Positions 14,150-37,302 of a DNA stretch of 64,000 bases are shown in pieces. Positions within the stretch are counted from its first letter, which is position 1, and each line of letters begins with the position of its first letter. The stretch is from assembly GCA_964019425.1 (NCBI GenBank), contig OZ025781.1:992001-1056000 (forward strand), in the 5' to 3' direction. This DNA comes from Flectonema sp. DT1601. Its lineage: Eukaryota. The notes under the pieces are model-generated. The model made no database searches. It was given only the letters and a program-made list of their open reading frames with translations, and was not told the origin of the DNA. The translations under genes were made by a program, and so were the position numbers.

Positions 14150-16363
14150 TCAAATCGCAAGAAGCCTATCAGCTTCTTCCAGAGTCCATAAAAATTGATT
14201 CAGCGGAAGAGACATGTTGAGGACATCTCTTCTCCAACCACCACTTGAGAAATTTGTGATGTTGTAGTGTTCCGGAATCGAGTCTTCAGAAAACAACCAT
14301 CTGATAACATGAATATTCGATCCCATCGAAAGGAAGACATAAAAAGGATCTTCTTGCGATGCATGTTTCATTGTCGCTTCTATGATAACAGACCTTGAAC
14401 GCATCAGAAATCCTAACGTCAGGTCAGCCCCAAAGACCCCAAACATCACAGCAACGTTTTCTAACATGCTCGATAATTTCATAAAACTATATTTTGAAAA
14501 CTCCACAGTCATCGGCTTCCAACCAGCTGACTTCGCTCCCTTCATAAGTTCCCCAGAGTTCGGGAGAAATCTCGTCCCACCTGCTCTCCTGTTTATGAAT
14601 AGAAGCTGCTTTCTATCACCAAGTGGAAGAGGAGAGAAATTATAACCAAAGTTACCTGTTAGCCAATGTCTTACGAGCGGTAATATGCTGTAAGTATACT
14701 TCGATAAAGGGGATAATCGAGGTGGTGGACACGCAACAATTACTTTTCTAAAACAAACTGTCCCCTGATAACCATGAGTACCATTCCCTGAATAGGATGG
14801 AGCAGTTATCACTTTATCAAGAAATGGAATATTTAGTTTATCCGCATATTTAAACCACCAATCACCTCGAAGTACCGAAGATGCATAATGCGGCCTCGGC
14901 TCACTGTAATAAGAAAGTGTTGTTGGCCGACACTTATATTTCCATCCGTGGTCGAGATTCCACTTCTTCCCGCGTTTTGATTTCCGTTTAAAAGAGCAGA
15001 GAGGAATCATTGGAATTACTCGACTGATATTATGAAGACTCAATGCATGGATCACAACTCCCCATAATTCTCCCAACCAGTGGGCCCAATTTTCGATGCC
15101 GGTACTCCTTTGCAGGTAGCCATTCCTAACAACCAAAAGAGGACTTTCTTCCCAATGGTCACAAGTGTCTTTGCTAATGTTTTCCCCCATCTTTATCCCC
15201 GAGAGGTAAAGTTGATCTCCAGGTGCCCACTGGTCTTTAAACTTACGAAAAGTGCCGTCTACAAGTGCTCCTTGAAATTCTCTTTGCATCAGACCAGCCA
15301 TGGCACCAACATAAATTCTTGGTTTTGCATAAGTCGTAGGGCACAACATTAACCCATCACAGCAACTACACGTTAAGAGGCTATCATCTTGCAGCCAACA
15401 ACTGCTTGCTTCAATAGTATCATTGTGATAGTCTATGAGGATGTCCTTTATATCTGAGAGAGAAGTTCCATTTACTACCGCTGGATGGATATCAAAAGTA
15501 TCTTTAGATACTTGAGTTCTTAATGCAGGGAAACAACGGGGTGGCCAATCAAGTTGAGACGGCCACTTTTTAGAAAGAAATGCCGTTGTTTCTATAAGAT
15601 CGTCAGCTTGTGTTGTATTGTCAGCTTGTGTTGTATTGTCAGCTTGTGTTGTATTGTCAGCTTGTGTTGTATTGTCAGCTTGTGTTGTATTGTCAGCTTG
15701 TGTTGTATTGTCAGCTTGTGTTGTATTGTCAGCTTGTGTTGTATTGTCAGCTTGTGTTGTATTGTCAGCTTGTGTTGTATTGTCAGCTTGTGTTGTATTG
15801 TCAGTGTCAGTTGGTTCTTGTAGTTGGTCTGCTTCACCCAGTTGGGAGGTATCTGACGATCCATTGAAGTTACCCTGAAGTTGATCATCAGCTTGTGTTG
15901 TATTGTCAGCTTGTGTTGTATTGTCAGCTTGTGTTGTATTGTCAGTGTCAGTTAGTTCTTGTAGTCGGTTTGCTTCACCCAGTTGGGAGGTTTCCTTAAC
16001 TGACGATACGTTGAAGTTATTTTGAAGTTGCTCATTATGGTGTGTTAAATTCTCAATGTCGGGCATTGCTGTCGGCAGGTCTCCTTGAATCTGTTGCTCT
16101 GAAATGTCACTACTAATAAATCCTTTCCGAGTAGATACTTTGTTTGTGCCATACGATTGTAAGGTTTGCTCATTATTATTAGTGATGTATATTTCATCGT
16201 ATCTCTTTTTCTTTATCCTTTTGATATCAATTGTGATGTTTCTACGAACTAATACACTTGTCATAGCCTCGAGTGTCTTTGGCTGATAAGAAGTTGAGAA
16301 GATCATCAACAGTAGTGCGGCGCTAAATATTAGCACCAATCTGAACCTTATCTTGGATCCCAT
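14150..16363 (-). CDS. GT61/DUF563-like type II membrane glycosyltransferase, copy 1 (737 aa)
   Basis: N-terminal signal anchor and DNTTQA repeat stem. NWAHWLGE, LLFINRR...TRFLPNSGEL and VMFGVFGADLT...VIIE match the GT61 N..H, I.R..R.I.N and GVHGAGL motifs. Confidence 0.75.
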   Translation of the reverse strand: MGSKIRFRLVLIFSAALLLMIFSTSYQPKTLEAMTSVLVRRNITIDIKRIKKKRYDEIYITNNNEQTLQSYGTNKVSTRKGFISSDISEQQIQGDLPTAMPDIENLTHHNEQLQNNFNVSSVKETSQLGEANRLQELTDTDNTTQADNTTQADNTTQADDQLQGNFNGSSDTSQLGEADQLQEPTDTDNTTQADNTTQADNTTQADNTTQADNTTQADNTTQADNTTQADNTTQADNTTQADNTTQADNTTQADDLIETTAFLSKKWPSQLDWPPRCFPALRTQVSKDTFDIHPAVVNGTSLSDIKDILIDYHNDTIEASSCWLQDDSLLTCSCCDGLMLCPTTYAKPRIYVGAMAGLMQREFQGALVDGTFRKFKDQWAPGDQLYLSGIKMGENISKDTCDHWEESPLLVVRNGYLQRSTGIENWAHWLGELWGVVIHALSLHNISRVIPMIPLCSFKRKSKRGKKWNLDHGWKYKCRPTTLSYYSEPRPHYASSVLRGDWWFKYADKLNIPFLDKVITAPSYSGNGTHGYQGTVCFRKVIVACPPPRLSPLSKYTYSILPLVRHWLTGNFGYNFSPLPLGDRKQLLFINRRAGGTRFLPNSGELMKGAKSAGWKPMTVEFSKYSFMKLSSMLENVAVMFGVFGADLTLGFLMRSRSVIIEATMKHASQEDPFYVFLSMGSNIHVIRWLFSEDSIPEHYNITNFSSGGWRRDVLNMSLPLNQFLWTLEEADRLLAI
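15603..15804 (-). repeat. 18-bp coding minisatellite (GACAATACAACACAAGCT)x11 encoding DNTTQA
   Basis: Perfect tandem units. Further blocks at ~15890-15945, within 20065-20555 and at ~34622-34696. Confidence 0.95.
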
Positions 16364-16480
16364 TTTGATTTTTTAGTACATTTACAACTTTATAAAAGGA
16401 AATTATTTATCAAAATACATAACACAACTCAAAAAGGTGAATGAGTTTCAGACACTCCTGACGAATCAGCATATGTTTCA

Positions 16481-16575: not shown

Positions 16576-18610
16576 ACTCGAAAATTACTGATTTTGTCCC
16601 ATTTTACCGATTTTAACCCTTTCCTTATGTACTGAAGTTCCGTGCCGTTTCCACACCACAGCTGCTCATTAGACTCAGGAAGAGTACCTGACCCCGAAGA
16701 GTTTGTGAATGCAGTGCACAGATCAGCAAAGAAAACGACAGGTTTCTCACGCTCCAACGAAGGACGCCGGGTCTTGGATAAATAAATCAGGGTAAAGAAA
16801 AACTTACGTCTTGCTATTACTATGTAGAAGATCTGGAATCCTAAACTTCTCCAAAAATACAACGAGAAAAAGGGTTCAAAATCGGTAATTAACTTTCAGA
16901 CTGTAAGAAAAAGGGTTAAAATCAGTAATAACTCATGTTAATATTTTTTCCTTTAAAAAAAAAGAATTTTAAAATAAGAATATATCTAACGGCCCTGCAG
17001 TTAGTTCGCAATTAGCGCGGTAATTAAAAATAATATTTGATATGGGCAGATTCCCTACAAAGTGTAACACCAATACAAAGACGATGTCCTTGGACACAAA
17101 GTAAGACAAGAATTGACTTAGCGAACGCATTGCAGCAATTTCTGCACAAGGCGACAAAAAGTCAATAAAGATTAAAACAAAACCAGCAACAACAGAAACA
17201 AGTTAGTATATGAGATTATTTAAAAATAAGAAAGAAAGAAAAGAAAAAAATGCATTTAAGAAAATAAGATAAGTATGTTCTTGAGACTTTATTCTAAATT
17301 TATTATAAAATCAGTTTCAACAGTAATTCTTATCCAAAGAACTGATAATAACAAAACGGAACATAAACAAGGTTGGGTTATTATGAATTTTGATAATTAA
17401 AACATAGATAGCTATCTAATCAAACGTTACTATATTATGAGTGCTCTACGAGGGTAATTCACAGTAACAGAAGACACAATCCGCATTGATTGTTGAATTA
17501 GCTTCAACTGATGTAATTTAATTTATAAAAATAATAATGAACACTAATCTTCAGCTTTCCATCCTTGCCTACCTTATTAAACTATTTATGTGTGCGCAAA
17601 CCGAAAACAACCCAATAAAGTAAGGGTGTTAACGTTACCCTGCCACAATTCTATTTTCGCTCATGAAACATGTCTTCGAGATGAAAAAATAATAATAATA
17701 TTCCACTCTCCCCTAGCTGTCACAAATGTAAAACAAAAAATGCCTCACACACAAGGAAACACTCACAGCCATTAAAAAGGGAAGGTGGAAATGGTGTGTA
17801 AGTAATAAAAATAAAAAAAAACGAACGAAATTTCCATTCCATATAAAACCTTTCATTAAATAATTATTAATATCCAAAGGGACTTACCGAAGGATTGAAG
17901 AAAGAGTACCACAAAACTTGGGCAATACGAATAACTATATCAAGAAACGGAATCAAAAGGAAGTTGAAGTGAGATAGTCAGTTTTGGTTCTTAGCCGTTA
18001 CGGAACAAGGCCCAGCCTGACAAAACATCGAACTAGAATTTAAAAGGAAAATAAAACAACGAACACACGCTTGATTGACAACAGCCCACTCTAGACTCGA
18101 TCAGAGAAGGGTTATTTGAACGGAAGTATATCATAGCGTTGAGAGCAGGTTACAAGTAGATTACTACTAATTGCGAGAGCTTGTATTGTTTTGAAATTGA
18201 GCAAAGCTCATCTTGATGATCATTAATTAAGTCTTCTGTGTCACGAAAAGTCTGCTGTGGAGGGAAAGTAAAGCCTGGGTAGTCTACATAACGAATGTGT
18301 ATTAAAAATAAAAGAGAGTATTTAGGCAAACTATCCTTTACTACACAAATAAGTTTCAAAAACGGGCAAATCTAAAATAATAACATCTCCAAACTTTACA
18401 CGAGACTCAACGAGGCCTCAGCTAAAATTCTTTTTTTCCGAAAACCCAGGTTGGTTCTGAAACTATTTGTGTAGGAAAGGCCTCCCCTTACCCAAGTTAT
18501 TATTTCCGATGCGGTACTAAACTAAAGAAAACAACATTAAAGTCATCCCCTCGACTGACTATTTCACAAATAACAAATGATCGATCCTCGATATGACAAA
18601 CTCAAATATA

Positions 18611-21040
18611 TCAAATCGCAAGAAGCCTATCAGCTTCTTCCAGAGTCCATAAAAATTGATTCAGCGGAAGAGACATGTTGAAGACATCTCTTCTCCAACC
18701 ACCACTTGAGAAATTTGTGATGTTGTAGTGTTCCGGAATCGAGTCTTCAGAAAACAACCATCTGATAACATGAATATTCGATCCCATCGAAAGGAAGACA
18801 TAAAAAGGATCTTCTTGCGATGCATGTTTCATTGTCGCTTCTATGATAACAGACCTTGAACGCATCAGAAATCCTAACGTCAGGTCAGCCCCAAAGACCC
18901 CAAACATCACAGCAACGTTTTCTAACATGCTCGATAATTTCATAAAACTATATTTTGAAAACTCCACAGTCATCGGCTTCCAACCAGCTGACTTCGCTCC
19001 CTTCATAAGTTCCCCAGAGTTCGGGAGAAATCTCGTCCCACCTGCTCTCCTGTTTATGAATAGAAGCTGCTTTCTATCACCAAGTGGAAGAGGAGAGAAA
19101 TTATAACCAAAGTTACCTGTTAGCCAATGTCTTACGAGCGGTAATATGCTGTAAGTATACTTCGATATAGGGGATAATCGAGGTGGTGGACACGCAACAA
19201 TTACTTTTCTAAAACAAACTGTCCCCTGATAACCATGAGTACCATTCCCTGAATAGGATGGAGCAGTTATCACTTTATCAAGAAATGGAATATTTAGTTT
19301 ATCCGCATATTTAAACCACCAATCACCTCGAAGTACCGAAGATGCATAATGCGGCCTCGGCTCACTGTAATAAGAAAGTGTTGTTGGCCGACACTTATAT
19401 TTCCATCCGTGGTCGAGATTCCACATCTTCCCGCGTTTTGATTTCCGTTTAAAAGAGCAGAGAGGAATCATTGGAATTACTCGACTGATATTATGAAGAC
19501 TCAATGCATGGATCACAACTCCCCATAATTCTCCCAGCCAGTGGCCCAAATTGTTGATGCCGGTACTCCTTTGCAGGTAGCCATTCCTAACAACCAAAAG
19601 AGGACTTTCTTCCCAATGGTCACAAGTGTCTTTGCTAATGTTTTCCCCCATCTTTATCCCCGAGAGGTAAAGTTGATTTCCAGGTGCCCACTGATCTTCG
19701 AACTGACGAAAAGTGCCGTCTACAAGTGCTCCTTGAAATTCTCTTTGCATCAGACCAGCCATGGCACCGACATAAGTACTTGGGCTTGCATAAGTCGTAG
19801 GACACAACATTAACCCATCACAGCAACTACACGTTAAGAGGCTATCATCTTGTAGCCAACAACTGCTTGCTTCAATAGTATCATTGTGATAGTCTATGAG
19901 GATGTCCTTTATATCTGAGAGAGAAGTTCCATTTACTACCGCTGGATGGATATCAAAAGTATCTTTAGATACTTGAGTTCTTAATGCAGGGAAACAACGG
20001 GGTGGCCAATCAAGTTGAGACGGCCACTTTTTAGAAAGAAATGCCGTTGTTTCTATAAGATCGTCAGCTTGTGTTGTATTGTCAGTGTCAGTTGGTTCTT
20101 GTAGTTGGTTTGCTTCACCCAGTTGGGAGGTATTCGACGATCCATTGAAGTTTCCCTGAAGTTCATCATCAGCTTGTGTTGTATTGTCAGCTTGTGTTGT
20201 ATTGTCAGTTGGTTCTTGTAGTTGGTCTGCTTCACCTAATTGGGAGTTATCTGACGATCCATTGAAGTTACCCTGAAGTTGATCATCAGCTTGTGTTGTA
20301 TTGTCAGCTTGTGTTGAATTGTCAGCTTGTGTTGTATTGTCAGCTTGTGTTGTATTGTCAGCTTGTGTTGTATTGTCAGTGTCAGTTAGTTCTTGTAGTC
20401 GGTTTGCTTCACCTAATTGGGAGTTATCTGACGATCCATTGAAGTTACCCTGAAGTTGATCATCAGCTTGTGTTGTATTGTCAGCTTGTGTTGTATTGTC
20501 AGCTTGTGTTGTATTGTCAGCTTGTGTTGTATTGTCAGCTTGTGTTGTATTGTCAGTGTCAGGTTCTGTAAGTTCTTCAATTAAATCATTTTGTCCATTA
20601 CTTGAATCACTACTATCGATTGTTTCGTTTGATTCTCGTAGTCGGTTTGCTTCACCCAGTTGGGAGGTTGCCTTAACTGACGATACGTTGAAGTTACTTT
20701 GAAGTTGCTCATTATGGTGTGTTAAATTCTCAATGTCGGGCATTGCTGTCGGCAGGTCTCCTTGAATCTGTTGCTCTGAAATGTCACTACTAATAAATCC
20801 TTTCCGAGTAGATACTTTGTTTGTGCCATACGATTGTAAGGTTTGCTCATTATTATTAGTGATGTATATTTCATCGTATCTCTTTTTCTTTATCCTTTTG
20901 ATATCAATTGTGATGTTTCTACGAACTAATACACTTGTCATAGCCTCGAGTGTCTTTGGCTGATCAGAAGTTGAGAAGATCATCAACAGTAGTGTGGCGC
21001 TAATAATTAGCACCAATCTGATTCTTGTTCTGAAACCCAT
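18611..21040 (-). CDS. GT61/DUF563-like glycosyltransferase, copy 2 (809 aa)
   Basis: Near-identical paralogue of 14150..16363 with a longer repeat stem. Confidence 0.75.
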   Translation of the reverse strand: MGFRTRIRLVLIISATLLLMIFSTSDQPKTLEAMTSVLVRRNITIDIKRIKKKRYDEIYITNNNEQTLQSYGTNKVSTRKGFISSDISEQQIQGDLPTAMPDIENLTHHNEQLQSNFNVSSVKATSQLGEANRLRESNETIDSSDSSNGQNDLIEELTEPDTDNTTQADNTTQADNTTQADNTTQADNTTQADDQLQGNFNGSSDNSQLGEANRLQELTDTDNTTQADNTTQADNTTQADNSTQADNTTQADDQLQGNFNGSSDNSQLGEADQLQEPTDNTTQADNTTQADDELQGNFNGSSNTSQLGEANQLQEPTDTDNTTQADDLIETTAFLSKKWPSQLDWPPRCFPALRTQVSKDTFDIHPAVVNGTSLSDIKDILIDYHNDTIEASSCWLQDDSLLTCSCCDGLMLCPTTYASPSTYVGAMAGLMQREFQGALVDGTFRQFEDQWAPGNQLYLSGIKMGENISKDTCDHWEESPLLVVRNGYLQRSTGINNLGHWLGELWGVVIHALSLHNISRVIPMIPLCSFKRKSKRGKMWNLDHGWKYKCRPTTLSYYSEPRPHYASSVLRGDWWFKYADKLNIPFLDKVITAPSYSGNGTHGYQGTVCFRKVIVACPPPRLSPISKYTYSILPLVRHWLTGNFGYNFSPLPLGDRKQLLFINRRAGGTRFLPNSGELMKGAKSAGWKPMTVEFSKYSFMKLSSMLENVAVMFGVFGADLTLGFLMRSRSVIIEATMKHASQEDPFYVFLSMGSNIHVIRWLFSEDSIPEHYNITNFSSGGWRRDVFNMSLPLNQFLWTLEEADRLLAI

Positions 21041-21167
21041 TTGTTATGTTTAGTACATTTACAACTTTATAATAGAATTGAATTGAATTAGTTATCAAAA
21101 AAACACAACTTCCAAAAATAACATCTCCTAAAAAATCACCTTCGACCTTCGAACTTAAAGATTTTTC

Positions 21168-22274: not shown

Positions 22275-23276
22275 TTAATTACGGCTTACATAACACTGCT
22301 CGAAAACAGCGCTATTATTACTAGGCAGCTGAACAGACTCATGGGCGATGCTGTGTAAGAGGAATCTTTCTCCTATTTTAGTCACACTACTAAGACCTGA
22401 AAGGTTAAGAGAAGTGAGGCATGAACAGGAAGACAAGAAATTATTTCCAATAGTTACGAGACTACTAAAACCTGAAAGATCAAGAGAAGTGAGGCATGAA
22501 CAGGAAGACATGAAGCAAACTCCAATAGTGGTGAGACTACTAAGACTTGAAAGGTCAACAGCAGTGAGTTGTGAACAGGAATACAAGAAATTATTTCCAA
22601 TAGTTGTGAGACTACTAAGACCTGAAAGGTCAACAGTAGTGGGGCGTGAACAGGCCACGAAACAACGTCCAATAGTGGTGAGACAACTAAGACCTGAAAG
22701 GTCAACAGAAGTGAGTTGTGAACACTCACACAAGAAATAATTTCCAATAGTGGTGACACTACTAAGACCTGAAAGATCAAGAGAAGTGATTGAAGATCTC
22801 TGCATGAAATCTTGTGAGATGATTCTGATGTCGAAATTTGAATTGCGGAAAGAAATCCGTTTGGCAACAGAAGGCAGCATATTATTACTAACACGGAGGC
22901 AACCATCTTCTGAGAATGTAGGGGTGTCTAGGTTTAAGTATTCCTCATTGTGGTTTCCAAGCCATTGAAGCAGCTTCTCCCGCTTCGATTCATCAACAAA
23001 CCAGCATTTACCAAATAACTGAAACAACTTCTTCCGCATTTCCATCTCGCTGTCTGCACCCAATCCATGATCTGCCAGCCGCTCGGCTTCGTCAAGGGTG
23101 TCACCAGCTAACGAGAGTTCAACTTCCTCCGGATCGACATCCCACTCGTCAGCCGCTGCCGTCAACACGTCGCTCACAAGGGAATCAGCACCAACTGTGA
23201 CTGACACAGCAGCGAGTTCCAATTCCGGGAATGTCACAAAAACCTGCATTGTTTTGAGTGATCTGCCGAAAGACAA
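22275..23276 (-). CDS. Ubiquitin-like + 22-aa leucine-rich repeat (BspA/LRR_5-like) protein
   Basis: Ubl region (MQVFVTFPE...VELSLAGDTLDEAERLADHGL). About seven repeats of LTSxDLSGLSSLTTIGxxFLxxCS with a 66-nt period. Confidence 0.85.
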   Translation of the reverse strand: MSFGRSLKTMQVFVTFPELELAAVSVTVGADSLVSDVLTAAADEWDVDPEEVELSLAGDTLDEAERLADHGLGADSEMEMRKKLFQLFGKCWFVDESKREKLLQWLGNHNEEYLNLDTPTFSEDGCLRVSNNMLPSVAKRISFRNSNFDIRIISQDFMQRSSITSLDLSGLSSVTTIGNYFLCECSQLTSVDLSGLSCLTTIGRCFVACSRPTTVDLSGLSSLTTIGNNFLYSCSQLTAVDLSSLSSLTTIGVCFMSSCSCLTSLDLSGFSSLVTIGNNFLSSCSCLTSLNLSGLSSVTKIGERFLLHSIAHESVQLPSNNSAVFEQCYVSRN

Positions 23277-23969
23277 GAAAGAATGCGGTCATGCGGTAAC
23301 AACAGTGCACACACTTTCTCAAGAGAGTGCCCAAACTCAATGCGTTTAAGTTCTGCAGAGAAAAGAATACTCGCGTCACAATAATTAAATATACGGAGAA
23401 AATAGCGTTGGCTGCAGTGAATGTCTGTACTGCAATTCTGTTTTCTACTGAAAAAAAGTAGACGTGAAGTCAGGCTGATTACTTGCTTTCTTAAAATGTG
23501 AATATCACTATCCATCATCTCTGTCTCTGGGAACCGATCCCCCCAAATTAATCAATCTCTTTCTAGTTATGAATGTGTTTGATAATTGATAAGACTTCTA
23601 TTGATATTGTTATTATATCCGAACACTTTGAAACTAACGCGTTTATATAGAGAATGGGGAAGTTGAAACAAAAATTTAATATCAAAAGTACTTGACTGAA
23701 AGAAAATATTTGCATGTGAGAAAGAAACCGTTCGATTTTGTACGTAAAATACAAAAGTATTGTATCAAAAAAACAACATTAGTTAGTTAGTTAAACATTC
23801 GAATATAACGATTGAGTGAAAGCAAAAAAAATAGGCGTAGCGATACGACGATAAGGAGAGGACTTAATTCTAATGCAAACTAAATTGGAGAATTATAATT
23901 TCTTTTTTTGGATTTTATCCGGAGAGCTAGTTAGTATCATTAATTAGAGCTAGTTAGTATTAATGGTTA

Positions 23970-24285
23970 TCAGTCAAAAGGGGAGAGGGCGGGAAAATTT
24001 TCGTAGGACAACAAACGAATAATGGTTGGTTTCGGGATAAGATTAAAAAATCCTTCTTCAGACCATTCCCCTTACCCAGCCCTCTTCAGCGAAGAAAGCA
24101 AGGTAGACACTGCGGTGTCAGGCCTGTCCTACTCATCGCATTTGCCACGTCAACATGGTTATTTCTTTTACCATGTAACACAGTCCCCCTATATAATTAT
24201 CAGTGAACGCGGGATACCAACAAAATGAGTGGAGCTGAGTTATGTTTATGGGGATTGAATAATAAAAAAATAAAAAAAAGTTCCA
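23970..24285 (-). mobile_element. Truncated PLE-type insertion of the same family as 3374-3523
   Basis: Contains hammerhead B. Flanked by diverged ~45-bp direct repeats TTAGTATCATTAATT...AGAGCTAGTTAG.ATTAATG.TTATC (~23931-23971, ~24289-24336). Boundaries are approximate. Confidence 0.55.
24027..24108 (-). ncRNA. Rearranged (A-C-B) hammerhead ribozyme, copy B
   Basis: Minus strand reads CUUUCUUCG-CUGAAGA-GGGCU...AAUGGUC^UGAAGAAGG...AUCCC-GAAA-CCA. Stem I is retained through G-U pairs; stem II has one mismatch. Confidence 0.7.
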
Positions 24286-24468
24286 GAGTTAGTATCATTA
24301 ATTTTAGAACAGAGCTAGTTAGAATTAATGATTATCCATTAATTAGTTATATAATCCAACGTTACTTTATATTATGAGTGCTCTAGGGAGGGTAACTCAC
24401 AGTAACAGAGGACCCAATCCGTAGCCATATCCGAAGATTTGGCTACGGATTGTTGAATTGGCATTGAC

Positions 24469-24561
24469 TGAAAGATTAGTTAGTATCATTAATTTTAGAA
24501 CAGAAAAGTGAGAATAAGAAAAGTAGAGATCAATAAAAGAAAAGTATTCATTTCTGCAGTT
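24469..24561 (+). repeat. 93-bp direct repeat flanking the PLE (second copy 26462-26554)
   Basis: Identical TGAAAGATTAGTTAG...TTTCTGCAGTT on both sides of the RT element. Confidence 0.95.
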
Positions 24562-24588
24562 TCCTAACATCAAAGGGTAATAGAATAT

Positions 24589-24656
24589 GTAGTTTCAGGC
24601 CTTAATCTTATACTACTTGTCCCTTTTTAGGCCTTCATCAGTAAGTTCTAAGGGAC
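24589..24656 (-). ncRNA. Rearranged (A-C-B) hammerhead ribozyme, copy C, in the PLE 3' UTR
   Basis: Minus strand reads GUCCCUU.AGAACUUA-CUGAUGA-AGGCCU-AAAAAGGGACAA-GUAGUA^UAAG-AUUA-AGGCCU-GAAA-CUAC. Stem I is CUUA/UAAG, stem II is AGGCCU/AGGCCU, stem III is ACUAC/GUAGU, with an extra helix GUCCCUU/AAGGGAC. Confidence 0.8.
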
Positions 24657-24745: not shown

Positions 24746-25357
24746 TCAATTTGAATTTTTGACGTCTGGTCGTTTCACTATTACAGTCGAGTTAATGGAT
24801 GAGTCGTCATCCAATTTCCGTTTTACTTTATCCTCGCATACTATCAAAGGTCCTATATTCGCAGGTGTCATTGTAACATCCATATCAGTCTGAGCTTTTA
24901 ATGGTATCATATGGAAACTATATTCTGTAGTTTGGTACATCTTGTCAAAATGGTCGAAAGGGAGTCTTAAATCTTTTGTGCCTTTAAGAATGTCTCGGAT
25001 GATCATGGACTCAAATGAGACTAGCGCAACAATAAAGTGAGTCATCCTTGTTTTCGCTTTATGCAGAATAAGTGCTGCGGCTGTATCAGGATATTCGAAA
25101 TCTGCTGGGTTAACGAAGTACTCGATTCTCCTGTTGAATTTAGTCATGCAAGCCATGTTAAGTACTTGTAGCGAGAACCAACCATCTGGTGATGGTTTAT
25201 GCTCTGAGTTGTTCGGTTCTACTTTAAGGGATTCTTCATAAAATCGCTGTTGGTAGTTTTGCAGAAAACTGAAGTTAATTCTATCGATATATAAATGATC
25301 TGCAATGAAGTTGAGCGATGACCATCTGATGTTTGATGTAGGGATGGTGGAAATCGT
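24746..25357 (-). pseudogene. Josephin (ataxin-3/MJD)-like protease domain, frameshifted from the PLE RT
   Basis: The frame of ORF 24746..25156 stays open upstream to 25357 and reads SSLNFIA...SPDGWFSLQVLNMAC...ALILHK...THFIVAL...IIRDILKG. Ataxin-3 has HCLNNLL...DSGFFSIQVISNAL...FICN..EHWFTV...FNLNSLLTG. Confidence 0.6.
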
Positions 25358-26554
25358 TTATCCAAGGAATGGCTTGTAGAGCCCGTATGGTTAATTGTAT
25401 CCTTTTCGATGCTTAATGGGACTTTGTGACTAAACTTCTCAAAAGTAAGGTTGATACGTCGACGCATTGCAGCTGCTGTATTACCATCATCAATGTGAGA
25501 GCTAATGAAGCGGAGGCATGCTGCTCTGATATTGTCAGATTTATAGCCCCGGTTGAGTAATCTATAAGTTACCGCTTCAAGTTCCTGTAAAAAATCTGCC
25601 TGGTTGTTGCAGATTTTTAAAGCTCGTAAGATCATGGTGGTAAAGATACCTGAACCCATTGATTCTTGAGCTGCGGAATGCTGATGGGTAAACCTTGTTG
25701 GTGTAATATGCCAACCCCTGACTTTGTCATTAACACTTAAACGAATCCATCGTTTATTTGTGTTAGTGATCTCTATTCGGATACGAATTCCTATATAAGA
25801 GACATCATCAATATTATTCGAAGTATCAGTGTAATCCATTGAGTACAGGCTTGCTGGTGGAGGGTCACAACTCCAGGTGAGGAAGTCGTCGATGTATCTA
25901 CACGAGTGGTCATGTTGCCGAGCTAAGTCTAGATTTTTTGCTTCAATTAAAGAATCGATATATGCGGATTCAACTCTATAGCAGTAGAGATTTGCTATAT
26001 CGCTACTGGCGTTGCCACCCATTGGAATGCCTATTATTTGTCTCCAAATATAACCTCTTAATGCAATAAAGGAGGAGTCAATACAGAATTCAAGTAATTT
26101 TTGACATTCTGCAAGCGCAAGAGAAGGGAATCGTGTAGGGTCACTCGATTCAAGACGTAAGATATTTTTGAAACTAAAGGCTTCTTGCAGTGCTTCACTT
26201 ACTTTAGTTTTAATAGCGTTGTGTGGTAGGCGGGTGTACATTGTTGTAAAATCAAAAGTCTTAGGGGATAATTTTTTCAAAACCATCAAATTCTGTTTAA
26301 TCGAACTAGAGACTTCATCATCTGATTCCACAATCCAGTATCGTTTGAACCGTGAATGCATATCTTTCTCTTTTAATATAGTCATCGCATTTTTAAGGAT
26401 ACTAGAGAGATGTTGGTGCGCATATGTTGTTGCTGTTGCAGGTGCAAGATAGAATGAATGATGAAAGATTAGTTAGTATCATTAATTTTAGAACAGAAAA
26501 GTGAGAATAAGAAAAGTAGAGATCAATAAAAGAAAAGTATTCATTTCTGCAGTT

Positions 26555-29500
26555 ATTTATTTATTTATTTATTTACGAAGCCTTGGAAGCCAAAAGCCAG
26601 GAAAAGCTCACAGAGTAACAGTTATATCGCTACCAGCAACCGTGAGACTCTCACAGACGATAAGAGACGTAGAATAACCTGGAACAAATGACTACCTAAA
26701 CCCACCGTCCACGCGAGCAGACAGTGTTAGAGACGGCTGATAACGCCAATTTTCGCCAAAGAGAGGGAGAACACGCCACATTAGATCAGAAAATAAGAAA
26801 TAAAGTAATGATAAGAAAGAGAAATGATACTAATAAATAAAATAAGAAATTACACTAGAGGAAAGAGACGTTCATTATCTACCTCGGGGATTACTTCGCA
26901 GGAGGCGACTTAGGCGAGAGAGGAACTTAGAAAGCTTGGATTCCGACCAGCTAGGATTGACCAGCACATTAACCATAGAAAGGTCGTCAATAACAACATT
27001 TAAATCGGTAGCTTTATAAGCGTTATCAATAAGTTCCATAACATATTCCTTCACATCAGAACCCAGTAGCGAGAAACTTGTCTTCCTTTCGATGTGTGTG
27101 ATTAGTTTCTTCCTCACAAAAATACCCTGAAGCGGAAACTTCAACAACAACGGATTGTCAGATAACTCTTTAAGATGATTATCAAGCTTGCTGATCAATA
27201 ACAAAGTGAAAGGCTGCCATTCGGTTCGAAAGAACATATCCAGAGATAGCTCATCATCAGGTGTCGGAAATCTCATGGTTTGCTTTACTAATTCCCTGGT
27301 CTCAACGCATTCAAGCAGCAGATGCTCAGTTGAGGTATCCTGAAAGCCACAGAACAGACAACATTTAAAGCCCGCAGTGACCCTCGGCAGCTTTACAAGC
27401 CTGTGGTGAGAGGTTCGCAGACGAGACAATTCTACCTCCTGCCCCCTAGTGAGACAGGGAAGGAAACGTTGAGGGCCAGATCCTAGAGTCGCTTTGCCGT
27501 ATGAATGCGAAGAGTCCACAGTACCCATAGCCTTCCAATTTGCTTGTTTCTTAATACAACATTGAGCCATCCTGAAATCATACGGAGTTAGTCCAGGGTC
27601 AACTGATTGCAAGGCTGCCCTCTTTGCCAGTGTATCAGCCAGTTCATTCCCTGCAATGCCACAATGAGATGGGACATGCTGGAAAATCAACGGCCTATCA
27701 AGAAGCACTGAGCGTTCAAAAATCTCACGATTTGTTGATGATGACTGCCTGGATGGCCCCCTATGCAGGGAGGCAAGCGCCGACTGACAATCACTGAAAA
27801 TATGAATCACGCCATGCGAAACAACATGAAGATTCTCCTCTAGTAGTTCAAGGGCTGACAATAGTGCTAGTTGTTCTGCATTGTAAATCGTGAGGGACGG
27901 TTGGAACTTGGAGAGCTTCTCAATGACCTTGCCAGCAACTAGCAGAACAGCAGCCCCCCCACATAATAATCCCCGCTCCTCGTCATGGAAGACCGAGGCA
28001 TCAGTGTAGACTTCAGCAACACACGGGGGCAGTTCATTGAGGGTCGTCATCGCCACAGCATACTTCTCCTCAGGTGTGTCAGTCTTGTCATAACCGCAGG
28101 ACGTGTTTACAACCAAAGGAGGATGCTTCGACCACGGAGGATACTGATGTGGCAGAACTTTCTGGGACCTAAGCTCTGACAGAGAAAATTCCGAGGAACA
28201 GGCTTCAACTCTAGTCTGCCATGGTCTCTTCTTCTCACCACCGTTAAACAGCCTCCATGAAGGACATTCAGGTTGTCGCCTTAGCAGATCTTCATGAACT
28301 AGGGCAAGGAGCCTAGATATCGTTTGTTGCAGCGGTGGAATTCGCGACTCAACTGTGAGCACCACATCCTTCGTCGAGAACGAGCAACCAGTGAGTCTTA
28401 TCCGTAGATGACGCAAGCACGCTTCGATCCGCTTGATCTGAACATCAGACAAAAAGGGAGAAAAAGCCTTTAGTCCAAAGAACGCTCGAGATAACACTGC
28501 ACCATCTACAAGCTGACGAAGGGTATCAGTTTTGACCTCATAGGCAGAGAACATTTTGAGTAAACCGCAACCAGCTCGAATTGTTTTCACAATCTTATCC
28601 ACCTGTTCGTCGAAGCATAGCGAGTCATCAATGATAACTCCTAGGTATTTCGCGCTCCTGACACGTTTCAGTGGGATCGCTGCTTTCAGCCTGAACTCCT
28701 TGCTCTTACGAGCACAGGCCAGTCGGACAAAGTCAGAACGTCTCGTCACCGGGTAACCATCAATCTCCAGTGGCAGCAAAGCATCAGCGAGATCCAGAAC
28801 TGCCCCTATTGATGGAGAAAGCTTCTCAGTGAGAGCACCGGCAGAGCCTGTAGGCATGTGTAACTCTTCAACAGACGATGGGAAGTAAAAGCGAGGTGCC
28901 CTACTCCATTCGACATCGGATCCAGAGATGCGCTTACCAAAGGCAACGTACTCTGTTTTCTTCATGTTTACCTCCATCTTAGAGGAAACCATCCAACCTT
29001 CTATCTGAGAGATGACGGACAGGCCCTTCGCTTCGATCCCATCTATCTTCTCATGTTGCAGAAACACGGCAAGATCATCAGCAAACAGAACACTGAGATC
29101 AGCATCACTTATTAGACCTGGCAGGGAGTCGACAAAGATCCGAAATAAGAGAGGACCAAGCACAGATCCTTGAGGGACCCCCTTCGTACAGGATCTGGAT
29201 CCACTATCTAATCCCAGAGACAGACTCACATTTCTATCCGAAAGATAGTTCGCAAGCCATTTAACATGCGGAACCGGCAGGACAGCTACCAATCTATCAA
29301 CGAGTATTTGATGATCCACGTTATCGAATGCCCCAGAGATATCAAAGAGGATGATCGCTCCATAACCATCATAGAGTTTCTGCACACCGGAAGCCGCATC
29401 CACCAATAGCGAGATGTTCTCTTCTACATTTCTGCCCGGCGTAAAACCAGACTGCCTAGGGTCCAACTTCCCCTCCAACAAATGTTCACATCGATTACCC

Positions 29501-30524
29501 ACAAGCGACTCCAAGCACTTCGAAACAATTGACGTCAAAGAGATTGGTCTGTAAGAAGACGGAAGAAGCGGGTCACGATCCCCTCCCTTCGGAATTATAA
29601 TCACCTTGGCCTTTTTCATGCAAGAGGGAAAGATACCCCTCCTGAAAGATAGCGAGGCGAGTCTAAGCAATAGTAGGAGCATACGGGGACCCAAGTTAAG
29701 CAGCATATTATTAGAAACAGAATCTAAACCAGACCCGTGGGAGGGAGTCAATGACTTCAGTACCGTGTATAACTCATGAATCGAAAAAGAACCACAGCTT
29801 GAGTCATCATAATCAGCAGGCTTCGAATCAGGAACTAATAACGGTGAGGATTTTGAATCACCAAAGAAATGGTCGAGTAAATCATCAGCAGCTACCGGAA
29901 CTTCCTTTGAATTGGACCGACCGCCCCTGAGTTCCCGCAGCTTGTCGAAGGCCCAGGCCGCTCCTTTTGAAGAACCAATTTTCGCAATAAGATCAGGTCT
30001 CAGCTTAGGTAATTTCTTCCTCCGCTTCGTATCAGATTTGAACCATTTGTTTGGAAGCGTTTCAATAGCCACCTCCTCAATTAGACTAATAAATTCACAT
30101 CCAAGCTTGTTCACATTAGACATCCCCTCCAAACGATGAGCTCGCGCTTCAGTTAGCACGCGAAATGAGACCCAGTGCTCATCCTCGAACTTGTTGTAGA
30201 ACCAGCGGCGGTGAGCGGGAGTGGTAATTTGTGAGCAGCCCGGATATACCGAGATGTCAACCACTATTGGCGTGTGGTCGGACCCACTATCAGACGCACT
30301 GTACTGGTGTACATTCAACACCTCAATATTGCTGTCGACAAGAAACAAATCAGGTGAAGTCTCTGAACAAGGTCTTGTATCCAGCGGAACATCGCAAATC
30401 TGCAGTCCATTTCCGTTAATCCAATCAAGAACTGACAGACCTCGCGACGAACTACTTGTTGGAACCACCCTCGACCACGACCGATGGTGAGCATTGAAAT
30501 CTCCACATACTACTTCACCGAGTT
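26555..30524 (-). mobile_element. 5'-truncated non-LTR retrotransposon (ingi/I-group LINE): partial APE, RT, RNase H, zinc finger
   Basis: ORF 26875..30468 is open upstream through VCGDFNAHH. Motifs: SDH (APE); YRPISL, DISGAFD, GVPQGSVLGP, FADD, KYLGV (RT); YTDAS, AE, SD, HCGIAGNELAD (RNase H); CxxC...H...C. (TAAA)n 3' tail at ~26553-26575. Confidence 0.95.
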
Positions 30525-30565
30525 TCCTAAAGATTAGTTAGTTAGTATTAATAATTATCAGTCAA

Positions 30566-30624
30566 AAGAAGGGGAGAGGGCGGGAAAATTCAACCGAATG
30601 CAAAAGTTCGTAGGACAACAAACA
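30566..30624 (-). mobile_element. ~60-bp 3'-end remnant of the hammerhead A/B element family
   Basis: Shares GGGGAGAGGGCGGGAAAATT and TTCGTAGGACAACAAAC with 23980-24016. Flanked by the 16-bp direct repeat AATAATTATCAGTCAA (30550-30565, 30625-30640). Confidence 0.6.
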
Positions 30625-30904
30625 AATAATTATCAGTCAATCAAAGTCCGAAGATTAGTTAGCTAGCGAGTCCGACATACCATCGAGTACCGGTTAGATA
30701 GACACAACAGGGGTGGAACGGTTAACCATCTGTGAGTCCCCAATACTACGACCTTATGTCAAACCTAATCCCTGAGAGGATCACTTTTTTAGCTCCAGCG
30801 AGGAATTCTAATGTTCGAGAGACACGAATACCTCAATGCTTCGGCCTTGCTGGTTCGCTAGCAAATTAACAAGGTTTGGGGAGGGGAAAGGAAGATTAGA
30901 TCTT

Positions 30905-31520
30905 CAGAGAAATATATATAAAATTAAAAAAAAAAAAATGAAAAATTCAAAAATTCTCATTTTTGAAATCAATATAGAATATTCATAAATCACAATGCCA
31001 ACTAGAGAAAGGAAAAGGGAGAAAAAAACGGAGGGCAAATGGGAGAACGGAATTGTCTGTGATCTATCGGGTCAATCATATTTCCTACCATACAAAAAGT
31101 GTGGATGCAAAAATATAATTGAGCCTTTGATCGTGTTCGGTTAAACTTAGGAGGAAGTATAATGGGGGTTAAAGAATCACTTGCACAGGGCTCGGCGCTG
31201 CTAGTCGGAAATCAGAAAAGCTATACGAATACACACAAAACGTGTTTGCTTTTTTCACAGTCGCTAATTAGGGAAGCCGGATTCTTTATTCTGTGGTGCC
31301 GCAATAAAGAGCACACACTGGCGTCTGTAGCAAGACACGGAATAAAAAGGGAATACTGTCGCGGGATTGTCAAGCGTGGTAGCTGAATGCCGCACAGTTT
31401 TCTGGAAGTAAAGCGAAATAAATATTAAATATCAAAGGCCGAGAGGTCTAGGTTAAGTGTGCTCCCAAACTTATCGAAGACTGCGAAGTGCTGCCGTAGT
31501 AAGAGGCCCTCTGAGAAATA

Positions 31521-31551
<31 letters not shown>

Positions 31552-32071
31552 TGAAAAAATTTCTCATTTTTGAAATCAATATAGAATATTCATAAATCAC
31601 AATGCCAATTCAGAGATATGAACGGCAGCTGAAACACAAGTTTACAAAATATAATTGAGCCTTTGATCGTGTTCGGTAAAACATAGGGTGAAGTATAATG
31701 AGGCTAAAGCATCACTTGCACAGGGCTCGGCGCTGCTAGTCGGAAATCAGAAAAGCTATACGAATACACACAAAACGTGTTTGCTTTTTTCACAGTCGCT
31801 AATTAGGGAAGCCGGATTCTTTATTCTGTGGTGCCGCAATAAAGAGCACACACTGGCGTCTGTAGCAAGACACGGAATAAAAAGGGAATACTGTCGCGGG
31901 ATTGTCAAGCGTGGTAGCTGAATGCCGCACAGTTTTCTGGAAGTAAAGCGAAATAAATATTAAATATCAAAGGCCGAGAGGTCTGGGTTAAGGTTGTGAT
32001 GAAATCACTGTGCTCCCAAACTTATCGAAGACTGCGAAGTGCTGCCGTAGTAAGAGGCCCTCTGAGAAATA

Positions 32072-32116
<45 letters not shown>

Positions 32117-32330
32117 AAAAAATTTCTCATTTTTGAAATCAATATAGAATATTCATAAATCACAATGCCAATTCAGAGATATGAACGGCAGCTGAAACAC
32201 AAGTTTACAAAATATAATTGAGCCTTTGATCGTGTTCGGTAAAACATAGGGTGAAGTATAATGAGGCTAAAGCATCACTTGCACAGGGCTCGGCGCTGCT
32301 AGTCGGAAATCAGAAAACCCTATACGAATA
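30905..32330. repeat. Tandem array of ~550-600 bp non-coding units (2 full + 1 partial)
   Basis: Unit boundaries GAGAAATATAT(A)n near 30907, 31513 and 32064. Core 31177-31450 matches ~31712-31985. A fragment also occurs at ~35393-35450. Confidence 0.9.
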
Positions 32331-33168: not shown

Positions 33169-35115
33169 TCAAATCGCAAGAAGCCTATCAGCTTCTTCCA
33201 GAGTCCATAAAAATTGATTCAGCGGAAGAGACATGTTGAAGACATCTCTTCTCCAACCACCACTTGAGAAGTTTGTGATGTTGTAGTGTTCCGGAATCGA
33301 GTCTTCAGAAAACAACCATCTGATAACATGAATATTCGATCCCATCGAAAGGAAGACATAAAAAGGATCTTCTTGCGATGCATGTTTCATTGTCGCTTCT
33401 ATGATAACAGACCTTGAACGCATCAGAAATCCTAACGTCAGGTCAGCCCCAAAGACCCCAAACATCACAGCAACGTTTTCTAATATGCTCGATAATTTCA
33501 TAAAACTATATTTTGAAAACTCCACAGTCATCGGCTTCCAACCAGCTGACTTCGCTCCCTTCATAAGTTCCCCAGAGTTCGGGAGAAATCTCGTCCCACC
33601 TGCTCTCCTGTTTATGAATAGAAGCTGCCTTCTATCAGCAGGTGGAAGAGGAGAGAAATTATAACCAAAGTTATCTGTTAGCCAATGTCTTACGAGCGGT
33701 AATATGCTGTAAGTATACTTCGATAAAGGGGATAATCGAGGTGGTGGGCACGCAACAATTACTTTTCTAAAACAAACTGTCCCCTGATAACCATGAGTAC
33801 CATTCCCTGAATAGGATGGAGCAGTTATCACTTTATCAAGAAATGGAATACTTAGTTTATCCGCATATTTAAACCACCAATCACCTCGAAGTACCGAAGA
33901 TGCATAATGCGGCCTCGGCTCACTGTAATAAGAAAGTGTTGTTGGCCGACACTTATATTTCCATCCGTAGTCGATATTCCACATCTTCCCATGTCTTGTT
34001 TTCCGTTTAAAAGAGCAGAGAGGAATCATTGGAATTACTCGACTGATATTATGAAGACTCAATGCATGGATCACAACTCCCCATAATTCTCCCAACCAGT
34101 GGGCCCAATTTTCGATGCCGGTACTCCTTTGCAGGTAGCCATTCCTAACAACCAAAAGAGGACTTTCTTCCCAATGGTCACAAGTGTCTTTGCTAATGTT
34201 TTCCCCCATCTTTATCCCCGAGAGGTAAAGTTGATTCGCAGGTGCCCACTGATCTTCGAACTGACGAAAAGTGCCGTCTACAAGTGCTCCTTGAAATTCT
34301 CTTTGCATCAGACCAGCCATGGCACCAACATAAATTCTTGGTTTTGCATAAGTCGTAGGACACAACATTAACCCATCACAGCAACTACACGTTAAGAGGC
34401 TATCATCTTGTAGCCAACAACTGCTTGCTTCAATAGTATCATTGTGATAGTCTATGAGGATGTCCTTTATATCTGAGAGAGAAGTTCCATTTACTACCGC
34501 TGGATGGATATCAAAAGTATCTTTAGATACTTGAGTTCTTAATGCAGGGAAACAACGGGGTGGCCAATCAAGTTGAGACGGCCACTTTTTAGAAAGAAAT
34601 GCCGTTGTTTCTATAAGATCGTCAGCTTGTGTTGTATTGTCAGCTTGTGTTGTATTGTCAGCTTGTGTTGTATTGTCAGCTTGTGTTGTATTGTCAGTGT
34701 CAGTTGGTTCTTGTAGTCGGTTTGCTTCACCCAGTTGGGAGGTTTCCTTAACTGACGATACGTTGAAGTTACTTTGAAGTTGCTCATTATGGTGTGTTAA
34801 ATTCTCAATGTCGGGCATTGCTGTCGGCAGGTCTCCTTGAATCTGTTGCTCTGAAATGTCACTACTAATAAATCCTTTCCGAGTAGATACTTTGTTTGTG
34901 CCATACGATTGTAAGGTTTGCTCATTATTATTAGTGATGTATATTTCATCGTATCTCTTTTTCTTTATCCTTTTGATATCAATTGTGATGTTTCTACGAA
35001 CTAATACACTTGTCATAGCCTCGAGTGTCTTTGGCTGATAAGAAGTTGAGAAGATCATCAACAGTAGTGCGGCGCTAAATATTAGCACCAATCTGATTCT
35101 TGTTCTGAAACCCAT
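33169..35115 (-). CDS. GT61/DUF563-like glycosyltransferase, copy 3 (648 aa)
   Basis: Near-identical paralogue with the shortest stem (4 DNTTQA units). Confidence 0.75.
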   Translation of the reverse strand: MGFRTRIRLVLIFSAALLLMIFSTSYQPKTLEAMTSVLVRRNITIDIKRIKKKRYDEIYITNNNEQTLQSYGTNKVSTRKGFISSDISEQQIQGDLPTAMPDIENLTHHNEQLQSNFNVSSVKETSQLGEANRLQEPTDTDNTTQADNTTQADNTTQADNTTQADDLIETTAFLSKKWPSQLDWPPRCFPALRTQVSKDTFDIHPAVVNGTSLSDIKDILIDYHNDTIEASSCWLQDDSLLTCSCCDGLMLCPTTYAKPRIYVGAMAGLMQREFQGALVDGTFRQFEDQWAPANQLYLSGIKMGENISKDTCDHWEESPLLVVRNGYLQRSTGIENWAHWLGELWGVVIHALSLHNISRVIPMIPLCSFKRKTRHGKMWNIDYGWKYKCRPTTLSYYSEPRPHYASSVLRGDWWFKYADKLSIPFLDKVITAPSYSGNGTHGYQGTVCFRKVIVACPPPRLSPLSKYTYSILPLVRHWLTDNFGYNFSPLPPADRRQLLFINRRAGGTRFLPNSGELMKGAKSAGWKPMTVEFSKYSFMKLSSILENVAVMFGVFGADLTLGFLMRSRSVIIEATMKHASQEDPFYVFLSMGSNIHVIRWLFSEDSIPEHYNITNFSSGGWRRDVFNMSLPLNQFLWTLEEADRLLAI

Positions 35116-37302
35116 TTGTTATTATTGTTTAGTACATTTACAACTTTATAATAGAATTGAATTGAATTGAATTGAATTGAATTAGTTATCAAAAAAAAAG
35201 AAAAAACACAACTTTCAAAAAAAAAAAAAAACGCCTCCTAAAAATCACCTTCGACTTAATAGTGACTCGATTATAACGATTGAGTGAATCAAAAACCATT
35301 CAGATAAACCTTATTATATTTTGTTGATCGCAGCTAGTTTTACCGGCGGCACAGGGAGATAGATAACATGACATAATAAATAACGGCTCTTAATCAATAT
35401 AGAATATTCATAAATCACAATGCCAATTCAGAGATATGAACGGCAGCTGATTTTTTCTTTTTTTAAGCAAAATACCAACTGATGACTACGAGGGGTCTGG
35501 GTAGCCCGCATCAGTAAGGACCCAATCGCGAAGATTGTAGTGTCATAGAATCGGCTGGAAGTGATCGACTTCCAGCCTCCACCTTTCCCAGAGGCTAACA
35601 GGTTGTAAACAACTAAAGAAAATAAAAGAGAAATGATCCGGGAGTGGGGGGAAGGTGAAAAAAATGAAAACCCTTCTTTCTTTCATATACATCTTTCTTT
35701 ATAATACGACCACATGTGCCATATGCCCACACTCCACGAAAGAAAATAGAAAATCCCGGAACAGTACCGAGGATCGTTCACTTCCAGTTGTCGAAAGCAT
35801 TATAATTGTACTGCGGGCTTACCGAAAAGCTTTAGGAATGTACCACAAAAAATTGGGCAGCACATAGCCATATCACTCAGCAAGAAATGATGAAAACCAA
35901 AAGGATCAGGTAAGATGACAGTCAGTTTAAGGGTCATAACTGCGACGGACCAAAATACGAAATACTACTGCGAGATCAAGTTCACAAAAAAAAAAGAAGA
36001 AAAAAGCCCAACTCGAGGTCAATATTATAAATAATTTGGAGTAAAAGTATTGCTGCGGACGAGGTTTGTCTTCAGTTTAATCAGTCCGCAAACATAACAG
36101 TTATCCCCCGGTATTACTTTCTAAACAAACAATTGAAGGGGTTGAGTAATTGATTCCTCTACAAGCTCACCTTCCTTTAATTTCAGCAACAAAACTCCGC
36201 ATTTTACAAAAACAAGAACATCTCGTCACTTTGATAAGAAAAGAACTTTTGAAAAAAAAAAAAAAAAAGAAGGAAGAAGAAATTTGATACCAAAAAATAG
36301 GGGGGTAACTTGATACCAATATTAAATGGAGAGCAACTTAAAACTGGCTAAAACGAGAAGAGGGTTCAGCCAAACTTGGTTGCAATATAAGAAAATCAAC
36401 AATTGGTATCGATATGTGGCCCCCGAATCGCTGTCCAATATGGGAATTCGGGGGGCCACGTACTACAGGTTGAGCGCCCCATGTCCTGTAGCCCGTTACA
36501 GCTTAAAATAGTATTCCTTCACACTTTAAAAGCAAATAAATATATTAAAGGAAAATTAAAAAAGAAAATTTATTTTTAAAAATAAATCAAATAAAAAATA
36601 AATAAGGTGGGGGGTGAAATATTTCGACGATGTAAAAATACGGTTAACAACAGTAAGTATTTATACAAAATTAATATCAAGTACGACACCTGGGGGGTTT
36701 TTTTTTTTTTTTTCCTCCCGAAAGACAACAAACTGTTGTCATCATCAAAAAGAACAGCTTTCCAATTTCAAGAATTGGGGGAAAGAACGACGAAAAAAAA
36801 AAAGAAGAAAAAAAAAAAAAAAGTTACTCTATTATGTTTTTAAGTGCGAGTAAGTAAACAACACGATCAACTTAGGGGAGAGATTAAGAACAAAAACCAA
36901 ACTGACAGTAAGAGAAAGACAATAATAAGATCATCTTCCTTGCGGCTTCTGTGATCACCAAATCTAGATTCGTGATTGCGAATCTAAAACGAAATCATAT
37001 TTTGCCACACAAAATCGTAAGATAGTATAGAAACAATAATTTCTTCATAAGCTAATCTTTAAAATTGATTCTACTTCTTGCTGAACAACTCCACCATAAA
37101 GCAAACAATCAGCTGTCCAGTTCTAAGAGGGAAAGAGTTCGAAGAGAGCGTTAAATTTGAATCCAAACAAATAATATTTTGGAAGTCGGAGTGAGTAATT
37201 ACAATACTTTTTTTATATTTAAAATCTCTGTTTTTTTTATTATTAGCAGCATCTCCAACAGCTGCTTCATCCTCTCTATCTAACAACGCTAAGAACAGAG
37301 CA

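Follow-up and report, generated by a model that had tools for sequence, protein, structure and literature searches.

A dead Penelope-like element whose intact relatives carry a likely Josephin-related protease domain behind the reverse transcriptase, with a predicted type-CSG hammerhead in its 3' UTR

The window, the whole stretch of 64,000 nucleotides analysed here, contains a retroelement copy whose parts are collected in Table 1. In the open-reading-frame list it appears as two overlapping minus-strand frames, one of 417 codons (25219-26472) with the reverse transcriptase (RT) motifs TFDFT, GIPMGG and YIDD, and one of 203 codons (24746-25357) with the peptides DGWFSLQVL (first base 25186), THFIV (His at 25039) and IRDIL (Asp at 24994). 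The preliminary description had reported these overlapping frames and likened the three peptides to Josephin motifs such as GxFSxQVI; frames and peptides were found as described, and a Pfam scan named neither frame at a useful level. The RT part corresponds to residues 775-1148 of P0065, a full-length copy of 1350 amino acids, and is identical to it at 372 of 374 positions; the tail agrees at 185 of 192. The longer frame continues out of register beyond the break, the switch falling between a Ser (25329-25327) and a Trp (25324-25322) on the minus strand. Where sister copies have the ten codons GEGLLGGECG at this joint, the window copy has two bases, a net loss of 28 nt that takes the Cys with it, so that a single small deletion, as had been proposed, accounts for the frameshift as well as for the absence of the Cys. 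Judged from its sequence, the window copy is a dead, 5'-truncated and frameshifted Penelope-like element (PLE) of the N-terminal-endonuclease (Chlamys) type.

Table 1. Parts of the PLE copy and its terminal repeats, in positions of the window
Feature	Position	Strand	Basis or remarks
First 10 bases of the upstream terminal repeat	30521..30530	-	split off by a later LINE insertion; adjoins the TAACTAACTAATCT run
Terminal repeat, upstream copy, 93 bp	26462..26554	-	100% identical to the downstream copy; pseudo-LTR/partial tandem or long target duplication
5'-truncated PLE reverse transcriptase	25327..26448	-	late fingers/IFD, palm with GIPMGG and YIDD, thumb
Break	25325..25326	-	2 bases against 10 codons (including the catalytic Cys) in intact copies; frameshift
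Remainder of papain-type, Josephin-like protease domain	24901..25324	-	helix after Cys, DGWFS 25186, His 25039, Asp 24994
C-terminal tail, 50 residues and stop codon	24746..24900	-	poorly conserved between sister families (42% identity)
Predicted type-CSG, non-circularly permuted hammerhead ribozyme	24589..24656	-	motif and stem scan
3' terminal repeat, downstream copy, 99 bp	24469..24567	-	direct-repeat comparison

The upstream repeat is likewise 99 bp long once an inserted LINE is taken out, and this flanking repeat may be a partial tandem (pseudo-LTR), with a long target duplication as the alternative. The LINE (26555-30520, minus strand), which we take to be Ingi-like, is itself 5'-truncated, has APE, RT and RNase H in one open frame of 1220 codons (26875-30537), and was inserted into the upstream repeat; a (TAAA)n tail and a duplication of 4 bp (AACT), both its own, rule it out as a part of the PLE. 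Directly 3' of the PLE lies a short dispersed repeat with a 17-bp hairpin (24344-24452), found also at 13146-13236 and 17409-17483. Elsewhere the window holds three glycosyltransferase-61-like paralogues that have a stalk of variable TQADNT repeats (14150-16372, 18611-21043 and 33169-35118, minus strand), a ubiquitin-like domain fused to BspA-type leucine-rich repeats (22275-23288, minus strand), further ubiquitin-like fusions seen by eye at 73-1026 and 9826-10587, and a tandem array of units of about 535 bp with a poly-T tract, 89-99% alike (30920-32170).

Sister copies, compared as proteins, preserve what the window copy has lost. Both P0044 (610 amino acids, 99% identical, from a cluster of 59) and P0065 run from the RT into the tail in one open reading frame (ORF) through HQTSGEGLLGGECGWAALNF, and this single RT-protease ORF contains the Cys, His and Asp expected of intact copies by the preliminary description. 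Among the 15 of the 59 cluster members listed, 11 span the joint, and ten of these keep the Cys motif; the eleventh, P0061, lacks it and is identical to the end of the window RT frame. In a sister family, 10 of the 27 proteins listed span the joint and all 10 keep the motif, which also stands behind the RT in a transcript protein of Flectonema neradi. It had been asked whether other copies of this RT are without the downstream segment; of the joint-spanning copies listed, all but P0061 carry RT and tail in one ORF. Because the sister copies are in frame, a programmed frameshift or a separate ORF2 is ruled out.

Upstream of the RT, P0065 and P0069 share the order of a basic N-terminus, a GIY-YIG endonuclease (237), CxC (560), GQKF and DKG, and behind it follow the thumb, the protease-like domain and a 50-residue tail. 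The endonuclease, N-terminal to the RT in the same ORF, reads GVIYALF...YVGQT at 237 and has R, H, E and N residues; Pfam matches to GIY-YIG are weak (E 0.15 and 0.007 in P0065/P0069, 6e-5 in P0002). In P0065, CNC at 560, GQKF at 596 and DKG at 679 represent the motifs CxC, GxKF and DK(G/A). Neither CCHH nor CX2-5CxxC zinc fingers accompany the endonuclease, there being no Cys in or just before the GIY-YIG core of P0065 and P0069, and RT motifs A and B lie 76 residues apart. GIY-YIG is missing from the window copy owing to its 5' truncation; its presence in intact copies rules out an endonuclease-less, telomere-bound PLE. That intact copies encode a single protein with a GIY-YIG endonuclease, an RT and a C-terminal Cys-His-Asp domain we regard as nearly certain. 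The host is probably a diplonemid, given that the nearest named relatives of the RT belong to F. neradi (52% identity), Diplonema papillatum (38-40%) and Rhynchopus humris (37%).

The C-terminal domain is as conserved as the RT: between the two sister families, identity is 64% in the protease (102/160), 66% in the RT core (231/350) and 42% in the tail (21/50). Its triad in P0065 consists of Cys1157, His1254 and Asp1269, with gaps of 97 and 15 residues against about 101 and 15 in Josephin-2, as read from an alignment; order and spacing are of the Josephin type in intact copies, and the Cys is lost in the window copy. The Cys motif had been predicted as Q-x4-C-x2-H-x-LN, with Gln and His in the wrong positions; the real motif is G-E-C-G-W-A-A-L-N. 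Cys-5 is Leu, a Gln stands at Cys-11 (Thr in Flectonema), and Cys+3 is Ala, so there is no His of the CxxH(A)LN kind. In Josephin, the Gln five residues before the Cys is the oxyanion Gln; a Gln at Cys-5 is also missing in most PLE Josephins that pass the Pfam cut-off. Our domain differs from the Josephin/MJD deubiquitinases (DUBs) in lacking both of these residues, in falling below the Pfam cut-off (26 bits for Josephin, PF02099, MJD) and in an identity of 9-16% in structural alignments.

Searches by sequence and profile bear on the same point. At E<=10, Pfam Josephin matched neither the window tail nor any of the intact P0044, P0045, P0065 and P0069; a PDB sequence search with the broken and the intact domain gave no match, nor did an HMM of the domain among the metagenome loci; and phmmer with the broken tail against 1.84 billion representatives found 5 matches, none of them outside these two families. 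The intact domain scored 1.7 bits with an HMM of 24 PLE Josephins and -0.1 bits with one of 12 viral Josephins, both within shuffle range. Comparison by hhalign gave 25.5 over 74 columns against the PLE Josephin relatives (0 of 150 column shuffles as high) and 21.3 against the 12 viral Josephins (0 of 120 shuffles as high, the top shuffle reaching 21.0); USP alignments scored 26.3 and 37.7 against these two profiles, as high as our domain or higher, and the profile signal may therefore reflect the clan only. MAFFT aligns the Josephin-group motifs CGxxA[LVI]N, G[NY]Y and HW onto our domain. By Atlas features, the broken tail has Josephin first (0.83) and the intact domain YopQ (0.91), Peptidase_C39 (0.90) and DUF261 (0.89).

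An unseeded AlphaFold model (8 rows) had a pLDDT of 42, and its two fold searches gave no informative match. A second model was seeded with 25 Josephin-group rows, is misregistered after the His strand and has a pLDDT of about 55 in the strands. In a VIA-wide comparison of this Josephin-seeded model, all top-50 rows confined to residues 171-311 were papain-clan proteases, with Z below 8. Ataxin-3-like (3o65; Z 6.5, rmsd 4.5, 121 aligned) and JOSD2 (6pgv; Z 6.4, rmsd 4.0, 111 aligned) were the best matches of the seeded model, within a range of Z 5.2-6.5 for Josephins, with C39 at Z 5.0 and UfSP at 4.8 and 4.7. Foldseek with the same model found nothing at E<=0.001, OTU and PcJOS appearing as weak rows only, and a further PDB fold search added nothing new; in its thumb region, the model can be aligned with telomerase RT chains. 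Because the model was seeded with Josephin rows, the fold match to Josephin is partly circular. A helix bearing the Cys, followed by His and Asp on strands, would be common to our domain and to JOSD2, ataxin-3-like and the bacterial PaJOS, PcJOS and BpJOS, as far as the available part of bioRxiv 10.1101/2024.07.24.604956 describes them.

We conclude that the domain is very probably a papain-clan protease and that a relationship to Josephin is probable; membership of the Josephin family is unproven. The triad and its spacing speak for the Josephin-like domain originally suggested; against it are the empty Pfam search, HMMs at shuffle level, marginal profile scores and a fold match that was seeded. 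In the alternative that survives best, unlikely in our view, the protease would belong to a different family of the papain clan (C39-like or UfSP-like), cut a ubiquitin-like modifier or its own protein, and resemble Josephin at the level of motifs only. This would account for YopQ and C39, not Josephin, heading the Atlas features of the intact domain, for C39 and UfSP ranking close behind the Josephins in the seeded model, and for the missing oxyanion Gln and CxxH His and the HMMs that miss the domain. However, the domain shares its slot with the Pfam-grade Josephin, USP and OTU domains of relatives, its G[WY]F/YS motif and the distance from His to Asp agree with Josephin, and no folded part follows that would need release. 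The role in polyprotein processing put forward earlier is unlikely as well, since only the 50-residue tail follows the domain.

Whatever the domain is, the frameshift could be an assembly or consensus error over a joint that is really intact, an independent possibility that we consider distinctly unlikely; the copy is 5'-truncated either way. No protein other than the one identical to the window copy shows the loss, and two Ala-to-Ser changes lie directly beside it. Against an error, the remainder of the RT is nearly free of differences (372/374), the 93-bp repeats are 100% identical, and other copies have deletions of their own (P0015, P0047).

The strongest reason to consider ubiquitin comes from relatives of the element. 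A search with an alignment of RT plus domain found 38 proteins, 37 of them new. Among these 37 further RT relatives, Pfam Josephin matched 12 at E<=0.1, 5 of them above the curated cut-off, at a position directly behind the thumb, and a profile of the Josephin-bearing PLE relatives matches the 12 viral Josephins at 96.8%. The same post-thumb position holds USP/UCH above the cut-off in 4 of 13 long RT relatives and in P0093, and OTU in P0051 and P0088; USP was also above the cut-off in 5 of 17 ORFs scanned from 28 metagenome loci. In many related RTs the slot is empty, with no such domain.

Several observations accompany this survey. The giant-virus and other viral contigs with Josephin-like genes (L035-L051) served the comparison profile only, and an RT scan of the viral contigs found no relatives. 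A separate group of PLE RTs has a C-terminal USP (L008, L011, L012, L015, L018, L019 and L030), and several of its members show, by eye, a differently wired hammerhead-like motif in the 3' UTR, with GAAA before CUGANGA and a split stem II. An OTU-like GDGNCFF was seen by eye in a frame downstream of another PLE RT (L023:748-1293). Josephin-like domains without the catalytic Cys (L004, L005, P0102, P0103, P0110) hint at a non-catalytic role in some lineages. The D. papillatum models P0001-P0009, P0048 and P0049 are retroelement ORFs that bear the annotation ubiquitin hydrolase 26 or have been spliced into host models, among the latter dynein intermediate chain, UNC93 and STIP1. The PLE retroelements L029-L034 lie in bacterial MAG records and are probably eukaryotic contamination.

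The RT tree comprises 26 of the 48 rows of a larger tree and includes no named Chlamys or Naiad reference, so the Chlamys name rests on anatomy. From one open fork (80/91) arise our family (100/100), the OTU-bearing RTs (100/100), the diplonemid USP group (97/94), a Rhynchopus USP element and the Josephin clade (100/100), and our family and the Josephin clade are not united in the tree. A second USP group lies beyond a 98/95 branch, and USP needs two changes. USP, OTU and Josephin are DUB classes that share ubiquitin cleavage, and this common activity is what chiefly leads us to expect a DUB in our element. That the same slot is filled by USP, OTU or Pfam-grade Josephin suggests selection for ubiquitin removal, and by analogy ubiquitin is the likely substrate of our domain. 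Because the slot is interchangeable, holding any of the three or nothing, the activity would be helpful rather than essential.

The 3' UTR of the PLE is predicted to contain a self-cleaving hammerhead. Its blocks follow the C-S-G order, namely P0, stem I, CUGAUGA (24641), stem II, P0', stem III', a GUA site with the predicted cut after 24611, stem I', stem II', GAAA (24596) and stem III, with stems of 4, 6 and 4 bp. A scan for all six block orders, covering the window plus 34 loci (176,134 bases in all), found 8 matches, 7 of type CSG and 1 antisense SGC, against 4 in 1.76 Mb of Markov copies. Six of the 7 CSG matches lie downstream of a PLE RT on the same strand (window, L009, L010, L020, L031, L032); the seventh, at window 3498, stands alone. 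No CSG match was found in 29 of the 34 loci, all five Josephin-group loci among them; several loci have no 3' flank. The extra helix P0, which joins stems I and II, was not demanded by the scan; in the window hammerhead it has 7 Watson-Crick pairs, and 1 of 5000 shuffles was as long. Across the seven CSG matches it has 5-12 pairs, with 1, 1362, 212, 7, 48, 91 and 0 of 5000 shuffles as long, and its sequence varies while pairing is kept. An Rfam search did not detect the hammerhead in this segment, and it was also absent from a nested minimum-energy fold (z -1.6). A second repeat family with the same type-CSG hammerhead is represented by tail pieces on the minus strand at 3432-3522, 24025-24112 and 30536-30660, the hammerhead being complete at 3498, decayed near 24090 and a downstream remnant near 30600, with no RT adjoining; our PLE inserted directly after one such tail.

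How much of this is new can be gauged against known systems. In Chara braunii, Chlamys-1_cBra and Chlamys-4_cBra extend at the C-terminus into a region weakly homologous to Josephin (Craig et al. 2021, PMC8557442, in the part available), so a Josephin-like PLE tail is already in print, contrary to the earlier remark that Josephin was not known as a standard PLE domain. According to the same part of that paper, these elements share with ours an N-terminal GIY-YIG without CCHH, CxC, the RT and the weakly Josephin-like extension, together with 5' truncation, pseudo-LTRs and a microsatellite-like target. They differ in length (about 1800 amino acids against 1350 in ours) and in a second Cys/His-rich domain that ours lacks; ours has a permuted hammerhead, its host is probably a diplonemid and its relatives carry USP or OTU. 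Diplonemids, USP and OTU are unnamed in the available portions of the text and supplement of PMC8557442, which also report that the canonical hammerhead was not found in most Naiad/Chlamys elements and quote Kojima and Fujiwara's idea, for Dualen, of a DUB-like domain against protein degradation. Josephin and OTU domains on LINE ORF2p are described in the accessible part of bioRxiv 10.64898/2026.06.17.732966, and OTU domains occur, in the source as far as available, in Helentrons. Within the available portions of these two sources (PMC8557442 and bioRxiv 10.64898/2026.06.17.732966), Dualen/RandI and other LINE ORF2p share with our element a DUB-like domain fused to the RT protein and the same proposed role; Dualen/RandI LINEs have a LINE-type RT and an N-terminal DUB, whereas in ours the RT is of the telomerase-related PLE type and the domain follows the thumb on its C-terminal side.

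For type-CSG hammerheads, the available part of Eckert et al. 2023 (PMC10085705) reports two validated RNAs, finds the type only in metagenomes and describes an extra helix. C-S-G block order, an intact core and the extra helix joining stems I and II are common to those RNAs and ours; the sequences in that part of PMC10085705 have no known organism's genome and no retroelement link, whereas ours lie in a PLE 3' UTR and downstream of five further PLE RTs. Our literature search, with subscription journals and Repbase outside its scope, found no publication that treats PLEs of diplonemids and none that reports USP, OTU or a CSG hammerhead from a PLE; the paper on the D. papillatum genome, in the part available, names no PLE, and the portions available of PMC12278014, PMC3482391 and bioRxiv 10.64898/2026.07.22.740005 hold nothing bearing on the PLE question. 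In the sources as far as available, the exchange of USP, OTU and Josephin in one slot and a CSG hammerhead in a PLE were not found in print.

The best explanation, to which we give somewhat better than an even chance, is that the window holds a dead Chlamys-type PLE copy whose intact counterparts carry a likely papain-fold, Josephin-related DUB guarding the complex. We envision that the endonuclease would nick an AT-rich target, the insertion adjoining TAACTAACTAATCT, and that the RT would copy the RNA from its 3' end, often stopping early and leaving truncated tandems. By removing ubiquitin from the RT/ribonucleoprotein or neighbouring proteins, the tethered protease would spare the complex from degradation long enough for target nicking and reverse transcription. 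In the tandem transcript, the type-CSG hammerhead would cleave about 45 nt upstream of the terminal repeat. A DUB might instead act where the element inserts, on the ubiquitin of chromatin or repair factors (histones or PCNA), and not guard its own protein. Ubiquitin on histones and PCNA is linked to repair signalling, the domain is part of one polypeptide with a nicking endonuclease and an RT acting on chromosomal DNA, and three DUB classes would suit this role equally well; our family, however, has no chromatin-reader domain, and we give the idea little chance. The chance is slimmer still that the domain is a non-catalytic or passenger module, such as a scaffold that binds ubiquitin or an exon captured from the host, without an enzymatic role, for although P0102, P0103, P0110, L004 and L005 keep it without the Cys, many related RTs are without any such domain and P0057 has His changed to Arg, two families that are 64% alike share the Cys, His and Asp, the Cys motif recurs in Flectonema, and the Cys of the Cys helix is kept in 21 of 24 relatives and missing in 3.

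Returning to a DUB that guards its own complex, we are evenly divided over a broader proposal: that a swappable DUB slot behind the RT thumb of permuted PLEs, filled repeatedly by USP, OTU, Josephin or a divergent diplonemid Josephin-like domain, reflects ubiquitin removal from the retrotransposition complex as a recurrent counter-defence, and that these elements give type-CSG hammerheads their first cellular host and job. The presence of three DUB classes at one position of one RT lineage suggests that ubiquitin-based control restricts PLEs. It also explains D. papillatum gene models named 'ubiquitin carboxyl-terminal hydrolase', several of which are retroelement ORFs. Finally, the predicted type-CSG hammerhead would tie a ribozyme topology without a known host to elements that have been reported to lack canonical hammerheads.
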